From assembly GCF_003018255.1 (NCBI RefSeq), contig NZ_CP027440.1: a stretch of 64,000 nucleotides of DNA. The stretch is one strand, 5' to 3'. The notes below the pieces were generated by a model, which did no database searches, was not told the DNA's origin, and saw only the letters and a program-made list of their open reading frames with translations. Source of the stretch: Escherichia coli (GTDB lineage: Bacteria; Pseudomonadota; Gammaproteobacteria; Enterobacterales; Enterobacteriaceae). A program made the translations under genes and the position numbers. Below are positions 37,013 to 59,284 of the stretch, one piece after another (position 1 is the first letter of the stretch; the number at the start of each line of letters is the position of its first letter).

Positions 37013-37595
37013 GCCTGATGCGACGCTAACGCGTCTTATCAGACCTACAAGTCCCGAGCACAGAACCGTAGGCCGGATAAGGCGTTCACGCCGCATCCGG
37101 CATTCAGTGCCTGATGCGACGCTGACGCGTCTTATCAGGCCTACAAGATCCGAGCACAGAACCGTAGGACGGATAAGGCGTTCACGCCGCATCCGGCATT
37201 CAGTGCCTGATGCGACGCTGACGCGTCTTATCAGGCCTACAAGATCCGAGCACAGAACCGTAGGACGGATAAGGCGTTCACGCCGCATCCGGCATTCAGT
37301 GCCTGATGCGACGCTGACGCGTCTTATCAGGCCTACAAGACCCGAGCACAGAGCCGTAGGACGGATAAGGCGTTTTACGCCGCATCCGGCATTCAGTGCC
37401 TGATGCGACGCTGACGCGTCTTATCAGGCCTACAAGATCCGAGCACAGAACCGTAGGCCGGATAAGGCGTTCACGCCGCATCCGGCATTCAGTGCCTGAT
37501 GCGACGCTGGCGCGTCTTATCAGGCCTACAAGATCCAAGCCCAGCCCCCCAGGACGGATAAGGCGTTTTACGCCGCATCCGGCAACCGTTGCCGG
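37013..37595. repeat. Tandem array of about six 96-97 bp BIME units (inverted REP pairs) between wcaK and wzxC
   Basis: Seen in sequence: unit gcctgatgcgacgctgacgcgtcttatcaggcctacaagatccgagcacagaaccgtaggacggataaggcgttcacgccgcatccggcattcagt begins at about 37013, 37109, 37205, 37301, 37398 and 37494 with few substitutions. Confidence 0.85.
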
Positions 37596-41911: not shown

Positions 41912-42001
41912 ATCGTTACCCTTTTTCAGGCAATAGTTGGCCCTGACCGAAGCGGCCAATTTTGTTTTTGTCGTTATTTACATCGCGGTTTCGCATTCAT
42001 T

Positions 42002-55209: not shown

Positions 55210-56349
55210 TTACCAGTTATGAATGTCGCTGGCTGTATCCGTCATGTAACGGACACCGCTAATAGTTGGCAGCAACTGATTGATCAGACGGTTCCAGCGG
55301 GAAACCGGGGCGGTGGTGACATACACCACGTCATAAGGTTGCAGGCGGAATTCTGTCGCCATCACCAGCAACGTGGCATCGGACATATCCAGCTGGTAGA
55401 TATTGGCAATCTTGCCGTTACGCCCGCCCTCGCCTTTCAGCGGACGAATGACAAAGATGCCGCTGGCGTTGGAGGTGGTCATGTCGATGCCTTCAGCATT
55501 GCCCAGGGCTTCAGTCAGGGTCATGCCGCTAAAGTCCATTTTCAGGGTGCTCTGTTTCTTCACTTCACCCATCACAAACACTTTCAGATCATCATTACGC
55601 GGCACGTAGAGAATATCGCCGGGGTAAAGCAGTCGGTTCTGATTGAGGTCGCCGTTTTGCATCAGCGCCTGCAAAGAAATGCGTTCTTCACGACCATTGT
55701 GTGTTAGCACTACGTTGCGCCAGTCAGCGGTGTCGGTCAGGCCACCTGCGGCGTTGATGGCATCAAGAATGGTCAGTGGCACGTTGGTGATCGCCTGTTG
55801 ACCGGATTTATTCACCTGGCCGGAGATATAGGCTTTTTGCGAGCGGAAGGCGGCGATATTAACGTCCACCTGCGGGTCAGCGATGTACGTCGCTAAGCGA
55901 CCGGTAATATCACTGCGGATTTCAGCGAGCGTTTTCCCCACGACGTGAACCTTGCCGATATACGGGTAGAACATAGTGCCGTCAGGCTGTACCCAGTTGC
56001 CGGTGTCGCTGGAGCTGCGGTACTGACCGGCTGGCGTGGTGAGTTCCGGGTGATCCCAGACGGTGACATTAAGAACGTCCCCCGGCCCGACGCGATACTG
56101 ATAATTCGCGATCTCACTTTCCAGCGTCATATTGGGGCGCGCTACATTCGGGCGTGGGCGTAATTGGTCAATCAGGCGCGGGGTCAACGGATAAACATTC
56201 ACCATTTTGTCGAGATCGAAATCAGCGTCCTGCTGTTTGATGACGTCTTTACCCATCGTCGACATATTGCTGCCCGGAAGTACTGTGCAACCGCTTATCA
56301 AGGTTACTGACACCAATAATGGCATCAATTTCATTTTGGATTTCATCAT
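55210..56349 (-). CDS. wza: Outer-membrane polysaccharide export lipoprotein Wza
   Basis: 379 aa ORF with lipobox (LISGC); first gene of the colanic acid operon. Confidence 0.95.
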
Positions 56350-56527
56350 TGTTTATTTATCACTTTGGCAGAGTAATTATCCTGTGCACTATTAATAGCA
56401 ATGTCGCCATGCACATTTACCTTGCAGTTAATTGAATAAAAATTTAACTGGCATCAGTCCTAAAAAAATTGATTTCATCCGCAGGCTATTGACAGAATAA
56501 TTCAGACTGGTCTTTCAGGCATCCAGA

Positions 56528-56566
56528 CACGCTACCGCCCCTGGCTTTTTAGCTACCAATACACTG
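56528..56566 (-). promoter_or_regulatory. JUMPstart/ops element in the wza 5' leader
   Basis: Seen in sequence: minus strand reads cagtgtattggtagctaaaaagccaggGGCGGTAGCGTG, a 39-bp JUMPstart with exact ops 12-mer, about 180 bp upstream of wza. Confidence 0.8.
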
Positions 56567-57007
56567 ATTTAGCTTAATTTTTAAAACCCTCTCAACATAC
56601 AGTCGTTGATGAGAAAGGGTTATTGCGGAAATTAACTTCCGAATATAAGGTGACATTATGGTAATTGAATATTGGCTCTCCAATAATGCAGGAGGAAGTG
56701 TTACAGCTAACGGAATAGCAGGCAAGGTAACAATTCGGCAATTGGCTATTTTTAAGAATTATATTAAGTGTCATTCAATATGGTTTTTAGGAGTTTCTTT
56801 AGGTTGACAATATTTAATATAGTGTCTCCACATGCGATATTTCTTAAATAATGTTTTATTATTACCACTTTTAATTCAGGGATAATGTGAGGTTATAAAC
56901 CTCAAATAATATGAGATAAATAGTGCTGCAACATTGCATTTTTGCCCCGATTTATCCATGATCGAATTGTGACATTTGTCATACAACGAATAGGTTTTGT
57001 ACTTACT

Positions 57008-58591
57008 ATGGAATGGATTGCCGATCCGTCTATCTGGGCCGGGTTAATCACGCTGATTGTGATCGAACTGGTCCTCGGCATTGATAACCTGGTCTTTATT
57101 GCCATCCTCGCCGAAAAACTACCGCCGAAGCAGCGCGACCGCGCACGGGTTACCGGGCTGTTGCTGGCGATGTTAATGCGCCTGTTACTGCTGGCGTCAA
57201 TCTCCTGGCTGGTCACCCTGACTCAACCGCTGTTCAGCTTCCGCTCGTTTACCTTTAGCGCCCGCGACTTAATCATGCTGTTTGGTGGTTTCTTCCTGTT
57301 GTTCAAAGCCACGATGGAGCTGAACGAACGGCTGGAAGGGAAAGACAGCAATAACCCCACCCAACGCAAAGGTGCGAAGTTCTGGGGGGTGGTGACACAA
57401 ATTGTGGTACTGGACGCCATCTTCTCACTCGACTCGGTGATTACCGCCGTCGGGATGGTCGACCATTTACTGGTCATGATGGCCGCCGTGGTTATCGCTA
57501 TCAGCCTGATGTTGATGGCCAGCAAGCCATTAACGCAATTTGTTAACAGTCACCCGACCATCGTTATTCTCTGCCTAAGTTTCCTGTTGATGATTGGCTT
57601 TAGCCTGGTGGCGGAAGGTTTCGGCTTCGTCATTCCGAAAGGCTACCTGTACGCTGCCATTGGTTTCTCGGTGATGATCGAGGCGCTCAATCAGTTGGCT
57701 ATCTTTAACCGGCGACGTTTTCTTTCCGCTAATCAGACGCTGCGCCAGCGGACTACCGAAGCGGTAATGCGCCTGCTTAGCGGGCAAAAAGAAGATGCGG
57801 AACTGGACGCCGAAACCGCGTCCATGCTGGTGGATCATGGTAACCAGCAGATCTTTAATCCGCAGGAACGGCGGATGATTGAGCGGGTACTTAATCTTAA
57901 CCAGCGTACCGTCAGCAGCATTATGACGTCGCGCCACGATATTGAGCATATCGATCTCAACGCGCCGGAAGAAGAAATCCGCCAGTTACTGGAGCGAAAT
58001 CAGCATACGCGGCTTGTCGTTACTGATGGCGATGACGCAGAAGATTTGCTCGGTGTTGTTCACGTTATCGACCTGTTACAACAGTCTCTGCGCGGCGAAC
58101 CGCTCAACCTGCGGGTGTTGATTCGCCAGCCGCTGGTGTTCCCGGAAACCTTGCCGTTGTTACCTGCCCTGGAGCAGTTCCGTAATGCCCGCACACACTT
58201 TGCTTTTGTGGTGGATGAGTTTGGCTCGGTGGAAGGGATTGTGACATTAAGTGACGTCACTGAAACCATTGCCGGTAACTTACCGAACGAAGTGGAAGAG
58301 ATCGACGCCCGCCATGATATTCAGAAGAATGCGGACGGTTCCTGGACGGCGAATGGTCATATGCCGCTGGAAGATCTGGTGCAATATGTGCCGCTACCGC
58401 TGGATGAGAAACGCGAATATCACACCATTGCCGGGCTGTTGATGGAATATTTGCAACGTATTCCAAAACCTGGCGAAGAAGTTCAGGTGGGGGATTATTT
58501 GCTTAAAACGTTGCAGGTGGAAAGCCATCGCGTGCAGAAGGTGCAGATTATTCCGCTGCATAAGGATGGCGAGATGGAGTACGAGGTGTGA
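57008..58591 (+). CDS. yegH: TerC-family membrane protein with C-terminal CBS/CorC domains (YegH)
   Basis: ORF 56942..58591; start placed at [35 protein letters not shown] (TerC signature); synteny after wza. Confidence 0.88.
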
Positions 58592-58665: not shown

Positions 58666-59004
58666 ATGAGAAAAAAGCTGGCTTTTCTTGATACCAGTCT
58701 TGACGATTTACGCGCATTTCCAGAATCGTCTCGACAGGAAATTGGCTATCAACTCGACAGGATCCAACAAGGGTTAAACCCATACGACTGGAAACCTTTT
58801 TCAACTATCGGCCCTGGTGTGCGAGAGATTCGTACTCGCGATGCTGATGGGATCTATCGCGTCATGTATGTCGCAAAATTTGAAGAAGCGGTTTACGTAT
58901 TGCATTGTTTTCAAAAGAAAACACAGACTACCAGTCAATCGAATATTGATTTAGCCAAACGACGCTATAAAGAACTTGTTCAGGAGCGGAAAAATGAAAA
59001 TTGA
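58666..59004 (+). CDS. Type II toxin, HigB/Gp49-like (RelE/ParE superfamily)
   Basis: 112 aa ORF; C-terminal region YRVMYVAKFEEAVYVLHCFQKKTQTTSQSNIDLAKRRYKEL resembles the conserved Gp49/HigB-like core as I recall it; good SD (aaggatgga) before the ATG; overlaps a downstream HTH gene. Confidence 0.6.
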   Translation: MRKKLAFLDTSLDDLRAFPESSRQEIGYQLDRIQQGLNPYDWKPFSTIGPGVREIRTRDADGIYRVMYVAKFEEAVYVLHCFQKKTQTTSQSNIDLAKRRYKELVQERKNEN

Positions 59005-59284
59005 AACCTTTGATAGTGTGTGGGATGCGGTGAGTGACACCCCTGAACAAGCGGAAAATATGCGGATCCGTGCCGAACTTGTTACGATCATTAATAACTG
59101 GATTGAACAACAAGGGTTTAGCCAGGCTCAGGCAGCGTCTGCTTTAGGGGTCACTCAACCTCGCATATCTGAACTTGCCAGAGGTAAGATCCAGATCTTT
59201 AGTATCGATAAATTGATCACCATGATGGCTCATGCAGGATTGCATATTCAACGTATTGAAGTTCAATATCCACATGCTGCTTAG
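58994..59284 (+). CDS. HTH (XRE/Cro-type) antitoxin, HigA-like
   Basis: ORF 58976..59284; start placed at MKIETFDSVWDAVSD after an SD (caggagcgg); helix-turn-helix region QAQAASALGVTQPRISELARGK; 11-bp overlap with the toxin stop. Confidence 0.6.
   Translation: MKIETFDSVWDAVSDTPEQAENMRIRAELVTIINNWIEQQGFSQAQAASALGVTQPRISELARGKIQIFSIDKLITMMAHAGLHIQRIEVQYPHAA

Follow-up and report, generated by a model that had tools for sequence, protein, structure and literature searches.

Base-level layout of the divergent wza/yegH control region of the Escherichia coli colanic acid operon, with a JUMPstart/ops element and a predicted wza promoter

The spacer between the divergent wza and yegH genes, in the 64-kb stretch of DNA analyzed here (the window), is the known control region of the colanic acid (slime capsule) operon, which extends from wza to wcaM and stands back to back with yegH. 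The region does not just resemble an already known system but is that system, and the interpretation offered in a preliminary description of the sequence contained nothing new. The best explanation of the region, and very probably the right one, is the canonical sequence of events at this locus: H-NS silencing, Rcs-activated initiation, and then RfaH/ops-dependent elongation. Phylogenetic footprinting places a predicted wza promoter and several candidate Rcs boxes at base level, and these coordinates could guide promoter design aimed at colanic acid production or a footprinting study.

The window is a part of the E. coli chromosome extending from the his leader to asmA and including the O-antigen and colanic acid clusters. 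The first gene of the colanic acid (cps/wca) operon, wza (55210..56349, minus strand), is an open reading frame with the Pfam domains Poly_export, SLBB and Wza_C, and its divergent neighbor yegH (57008..58591, plus strand) encodes a TerC/CBS/CorC_HlyC membrane protein; both calls combine Pfam domains with the RefSeq annotation of an identical genome. The wza start codon lies at 56349 on the minus strand and the yegH ATG at 57008 on the plus strand, leaving a spacer of 658 bp (56350..57007) where the preliminary description had estimated about 650 bp. The spacer was also correctly described as AT-rich: its G+C fraction is 0.343, as compared with 0.487 for the window, and reaches a minimum of 0.295 in 200-bp windows. 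This value is well under the background, as expected for an AT-rich region silenced by H-NS. The spacer is found nearly full-length, with 95–100% identity, in 4818 of 5426 complete E. coli genomes, and the K-12 MG1655 spacer is 98.3% identical over all 659 bases queried, which identifies the region as the classical cps/wza control region. Behind wza follow annotated colanic acid genes, co-directional to about position 33049. The colanic acid operon proposed to lie behind ops is thus present, but it spans about 23 kb rather than the 20 kb first stated. Two other features were observed in this part of the window: five tandem REP/BIME-type repeats (Rfam naRNA4; 37071..37526, plus strand) in the colanic acid cluster region, and an algC RNA motif (41916..41965, minus strand) preceding the phosphomannomutase gene within the operon.

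For the comparative analysis, species-representative genomes were scanned for YegH, which yielded 80 loci. In 67 of the 80, from many genera, wza is divergent from yegH at a distance of 475–935 bp (mostly 640–720 bp), and the same wza/yegH layout recurs in 68 Enterobacteriaceae loci. The spacer alignment comprised 43 sequences (the window and 42 loci), and the identities given below are means relative to the window. Over the 43 sequences, the mean identity of the spacer is 61%, but its distribution is very uneven. The conserved islands upstream of the predicted wza start, described below, are separated by start-to-start distances of 36–38, 16, 24–26, 40–41 and 17 bp in essentially all of the 68 loci, with unconserved linkers between them, and the spacing from the most distal of these islands (Box C) to the −10 block is constant within 1–2 bp over 150 bp (68 loci). 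The least conserved part is the stretch of 120–190 bp leading up to the JUMPstart from the predicted start, with 38% identity and indels in most genera, and the distance between the −10 block and ops ranges from 156 to 194 bp across the loci; the outlier, L070, has 79 bp and a truncated JUMPstart. The promoter architecture is thus held at constant spacing across the Enterobacteriaceae, while the stretch from the start to the JUMPstart is free to vary.

The JUMPstart in the wza leader (56528..56566, minus strand; 39 bp) is a full-length match to Rfam RF01707, a covariance model of 38 positions, with a score of 57.3 bits against a gathering score of 35 and E = 1.6e-10 for the whole 64-kb window. 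The arms of its small hairpin are at 56559..56555 and 56545..56541 (minus strand), and the outer stem pair varies between U:G, U:A and C:G among the loci. The last twelve bases, at the 3′ end of the JUMPstart, are the ops site GGCGGTAGCGTG (56528..56539, minus strand), which meets the 12-nt ops consensus GGCGGTAGnnTG exactly. The preliminary description had reported both the 39-bp element and the exact ops, and the covariance score and the consensus match bear it out. The ops site reads 5′ to 3′ in the sense of wza and therefore lies on the non-template strand, as RfaH recruitment requires, at 190 nt 5′ of the wza ATG in the untranslated leader. Mean identity is 84% for the JUMPstart and 94% for ops in the alignment. 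The 64 kb contain only three exact matches to GGCGGTAGNNTG, all in the leaders of polysaccharide operons, and two of them are in the O-antigen leader. The JUMPstart is reportedly the subject of work by Hobbs and Reeves in 1994, and ops is said to have been treated by Bailey et al. in 1997.

A second JUMPstart (30597..30635, minus strand; 56.1 bits) is located in the gap that separates a galF-like ORF from the first gene of the O-antigen cluster. This leader contains another exact match to the ops consensus, GGCGGTAGTATG (30716..30727, minus strand), some 80 nt upstream of the JUMPstart, so that the O-antigen leader has two potential RfaH loading sites in tandem.

Among the 67 related loci with an adjacent wza, 63 have an ops match, and in all except two of these the match is 188–199 nt away from the wza ATG. 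In L036, L040 and L072, which belong to Pseudescherichia vulneris and its relatives, the JUMPstart/ops is cleanly deleted, and the spacer of 475–476 bp retains all of the wza promoter boxes as well as the conserved leader. Citrobacter sp. FP75 (L014) carries the ops variant GGCGGTAGCGTA. These four loci are natural test cases for a colanic acid operon that lacks RfaH loading.

Published work provides the functional evidence at this locus. Hustmyer et al. (2022; PMC9765446) showed that GGCGGTAGCGTG at −190 from wza is bound by RfaH in a Δhns ΔstpA strain of uropathogenic E. coli CFT073, as one of eight leader ops sites in CFT073 with an RfaH ChIP signal. The signal at wza appears after the deletion of hns and stpA and is gone in ΔrfaH. 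In wild-type CFT073, H-NS covers the wza promoter and the RNA polymerase signal is at background, and a sigma-70 peak at wza is present solely in the hns/stpA double mutant (PMC9765446). The dependence of distal gene expression on RfaH has been attributed to Navasa et al. (2014), as cited by Hustmyer et al. (2022; PMC9765446), and papers citing Stout (1996) credit that study with a single promoter upstream of wza, including its −10 and −35 sites, and with JUMPstart-RfaH antitermination. The RfaH-type antitermination that had been deduced from the JUMPstart agrees with this binding at the CFT073 ops, 190 nt before wza.

The wza promoter itself was placed by conservation. The −35 block CCTTGCCTG (56727..56719, minus strand; 94% mean identity) and the −10 block TTAGCTGTAACACTTC (TTAGCTGyAACAmTTC; 56710..56695, minus strand; 88% mean identity) have a start-to-start distance of exactly 17 bp in every one of the 68 loci. 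The predicted core promoter within them (56697..56725, minus strand) consists of the −35 element TTGCCT (56725..56720), a 17-bp spacer and an extended −10 element (56705..56697), in which TGn directly precedes a hexamer with A at position 2 and T at position 6. The extended −10 reads TGT-AACACT in the window and TGC-AACAAT in most genera. Its variation is almost solely at the n of TGn and at −8, the least critical positions of an extended −10, while TG, A-11 and T-7 are invariant or nearly so across the genera. From the position of the −10 alone, transcription is predicted to start at 56687..56690 (near 56689, minus strand), which would give a wza leader of about 340 nt with ops at approximately +151..+162. 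As read from the sequence, the poor −35 combined with an extended −10 fits a weak, activator-dependent sigma-70 promoter. An Rcs-dependent promoter in the remainder of the spacer, as the preliminary description had expected, agrees with the published accounts, and footprinting now supplies its inferred position.

This position also argues against a wza start downstream of ops, because the sole promoter-like element that is conserved precedes ops by 150 bp, and such a start would be difficult to reconcile with the published RfaH ChIP signal, because that signal requires a transcribed ops.

Upstream of the core promoter lie the candidate Rcs boxes. According to papers citing Wehland and Bernhard (2000), an RcsAB box is present at the wza promoter, where it is reportedly bound by the RcsA-RcsB heterodimer and needed for activation. 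For the comparison, we used the RcsAB box consensus TaAGaatatTCcta (Wehland and Bernhard 2000) and the RcsB motif TN(G/A)GAN4TC(T/C)NA, both in the form quoted in secondary sources. The best RcsAB-box candidate is Box C, TAAGAAATATCGCA (56846..56833, minus strand), with all five invariant positions of TaAGaatatTCcta, 9 of 14 positions overall, and its center at about −150.5 from the predicted start. Box C is found in 47 of the 68 loci, at 36–38 bp from the TGTCAAy box and with 75% mean identity; about 20 of the 68 are without it, and L041 has only a weaker match, 46 bp from TGTCAAy. The TGTCAAy box (TGTCAAC; 56809..56803, minus strand) is conserved in all 68 loci and is always located 16 bp before the ATCCTAAAA box, the right half of Box A. 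Box A, TAAAGAAACTCCTA (56801..56788, minus strand; center at about −105.5), is RcsAB-like, with a perfect right half-site (TCCTA), 10 of the 14 consensus positions and four of the five invariant ones, and ATCCTAAAA is conserved in the 68 loci with 89% mean identity. Box B (56753..56766; TAAGAATTATATTA on the plus strand, TAATATAATTCTTA on the minus strand; center at about −70.5) is likewise RcsAB-like: it has 8 of the 9 specified positions of the RcsB motif, 10 of 14 positions of TaAGaatatTCcta including four of the five invariant ones, and one perfect half-site. The 19-mer around Box B shows 91% mean identity in the 43 sequences and constant spacing in the 68 loci, and its TTTAAGAA half pairs with Box C as an inverted repeat. 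Both Box A and Box B occur in 68 of 68 loci.

The motif scan for RcsAB that the preliminary description had proposed succeeded in part: Box C has five of five invariant bases, but the degenerate RcsB motif TNRGANNNNTCYNA is not above chance, with 45 matches in the window versus 61 expected, and is uninformative alone. Because motif matches are no commoner than chance, the assignment of the Rcs boxes rests on conservation and spacing. A full-text literature search with the box sequences returned irrelevant matches only.

A simple activator would be expected closer to the core promoter than Box C, which is at −150. We tentatively raise the possibility, although the chances are against it, that the wza promoter is a rigid multi-site assembly of about 150 bp, perhaps beyond the single RcsAB box of the secondary sources. 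As laid out in the sequence, such an assembly would consist of Box C, TGTCAAy about 37 bp further on, ATCCTAAAA after 16 bp, CTTAATATTAATCTTAAAA after 24–25 bp and the −35 block after 40–41 bp, all counted from start to start. These distances are retained in dozens of enterobacterial genera, in which the linkers have diverged freely. If true, the model implies several RcsB/RcsA dimers or an additional factor at TGTCAAy, and an activation complex of fixed geometry, which might wrap the DNA and would displace H-NS, beyond one activator touching the polymerase. The rigidly spaced extra boxes might be under-described, and some or all of them may already be in the literature.

The distance of Box C would be explained more conventionally if the wza promoter were TTGTCA (56810..56805) and TAAAAA (56789..56784), with a 15-bp spacer and a start near 56777. 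Box C would then occupy the class I position −62.5, a more conventional geometry than an activator at −150, and the leader would take in Box B and the TTGCCT/TGTAACACT block as elements of its own. TTGTCA matches five of the six bases of the −35 consensus, is conserved in all 68 loci, and stands at a constant 36–38 bp from Box C in the 47 loci with a clear Box C. However, in about 20 loci TTGTCA is kept and Box C is missing, the spacer is just 15 bp, and the sixth base of TAAAAA varies among A, C, G and T between species, although T at −7 is nearly indispensable. The downstream block, and not TAAAAA, varies as expected of a real extended −10. We consider a start near 56777 unlikely.

A much less probable promoter is TGGAGA with CATAAT (56682..56655; 16-bp spacer), which would start near 56648. 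The pair agrees with the sigma-70 hexamers at 9 of 12 positions and is located upstream of ops, but it falls in the least conserved part of the spacer, where identity is 38% and most genera have indels. A consensus promoter and terminator scan of the spacer detected no terminator and one promoter match, against 3.8 expected in shuffles, and this match is TGGAGA/CATAAT. The sigma-70 scan suggested in the preliminary description thus returned one weak, unconserved match and missed the predicted promoter, which conservation located instead.

Least credible of all, to the point of being nearly negligible, is that the conservation is partly coding, through a 49-aa PGAP ‘hypothetical protein’ (56658..56807, plus strand): its frame is open and carries an annotation in many E. 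coli genomes, strain 2014C-3075 among them, but it has no Pfam match, is absent from the K-12 annotation and overlaps the wza promoter boxes on the opposite strand, and the conserved stretches are short boxes between unconserved, indel-bearing sequence with no codon-periodic pattern, so that we rejected it as a gene and regard it as a probably spurious call.

With the core promoter predicted at 56697..56725, the leader includes further conserved sequence between ops and wza. The block at 56440..56505 is 81% conserved (43 sequences), and a conserved hairpin (56425..56450, minus strand), in which CAGTTAA and TTAACTG enclose a variable 12-nt loop, is part of the minimum-energy fold. The 45 nt before the wza ATG (56350..56395, minus strand) have 87% mean identity. 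The fold of the whole 351-nt leader is not unusually structured (z = −0.95). No Shine-Dalgarno sequence was found within 15 nt of the wza ATG. Genes whose ribosome-binding sites are weak are believed to recruit ribosomes with the help of RfaH, a role that would fit wza. Directly ahead of the JUMPstart, the leader carries a hairpin restricted to Escherichia, AACCCTTTCTCA ... TGAGAGGGTT (56585..56621, minus strand), with TTAAAAATT after it. We rejected this hairpin (56621..56585) as an attenuator, as it has no adequate U-tract, is unconserved outside Escherichia and was not called by the scan.

On the yegH side, the proximal block (56935..57007, plus strand) has a mean identity of 70%, compared with 39% for 56850..56930, and presumably holds the yegH promoter and leader. 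A permissive Rfam scan of the spacer detected the JUMPstart alone, with no riboswitch ahead of the TerC-family gene yegH. The yegH ATG is preceded at 25 bp by a CRP-like palindrome, TGTGAcatttgTCATA (56968..56983, plus strand), which belongs to a moderately conserved block (about 73%). It has 9 of 10 core positions of the CRP consensus, and could be a small leader hairpin instead. A near-perfect inverted repeat of 13 nt, ATAATGTGAGGTT / AACCTCAAATAAT, its arms 3 bp apart (56882..56910), falls in the central, unconserved part of the spacer and was observed in Escherichia only. The palindrome AGGTT-TAT-AACCT (56890..56902) was considered as an MqsA-type site and rejected: its half-sites are arranged oppositely to those of the MqsA motif, and it is Escherichia-specific.

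Taken together with the literature, the canonical control scheme would operate on these elements as follows. In unstressed cells, H-NS, whose occupancy is known from the published ChIP data, would cover the AT-rich spacer and keep the weak wza promoter silent. Upon activation of the Rcs phosphorelay, RcsB, with RcsA, would bind the upstream RcsAB-type boxes, for which the elements above are candidates, the Rcs dependence itself coming from the literature. Initiation would then occur near 56689 from the predicted sigma-70 promoter with its poor −35 and extended −10 (56725..56697). About 150 nt into the leader of some 340 nt, ops (56539..56528) would become accessible on the non-template strand within the transcription bubble, where it would pause RNA polymerase and recruit RfaH, consistent with the published occupancy. 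RfaH would remain on the elongation complex and suppress pausing, Rho termination and H-NS roadblocks over the operon of about 23 kb, and it probably also aids ribosome loading on wza, which lacks a Shine-Dalgarno sequence.

We compared the region with the known systems that it resembles most. The K-12 cps (wza) promoter region is the same locus, with the same flanking genes, 39-bp element and ops, and the spacer differs by strain-level substitutions. This strain has a toxin-antitoxin pair after yegH, whereas K-12 does not. The pair, a RelE/ParE-type (Pfam Gp49) toxin gene and an overlapping HTH_37 antitoxin gene (58666..59284, plus strand), lies between yegH and asmA, and its presence in 2014C-3075 and absence from K-12 mark it as a strain-variable insertion. 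The wza ops of CFT073 (PMC9765446) is the identical GGCGGTAGCGTG, at the same −190 in the leader and on the non-template strand; its occupancy was measured by ChIP in Δhns ΔstpA (PMC9765446), while the site in this strain is known from sequence alone. As compared with the RcsAB box consensus TaAGaatatTCcta, Box C has the five invariant bases, and Boxes A and B have four each plus a perfect half-site. The secondary sources, as far as they describe the promoter, give one RcsAB box, whereas three box-like elements and TGTCAAy are found here at fixed spacing. Finally, the leaders of the O-antigen (rfb), LPS core (rfaQ), hly, kps and tra operons contain the same 39-bp JUMPstart element. Those operons are constitutive or respond to other signals, whereas the wza copy is located behind an Rcs-dependent, H-NS-silenced promoter, so that RfaH acts there only after induction.
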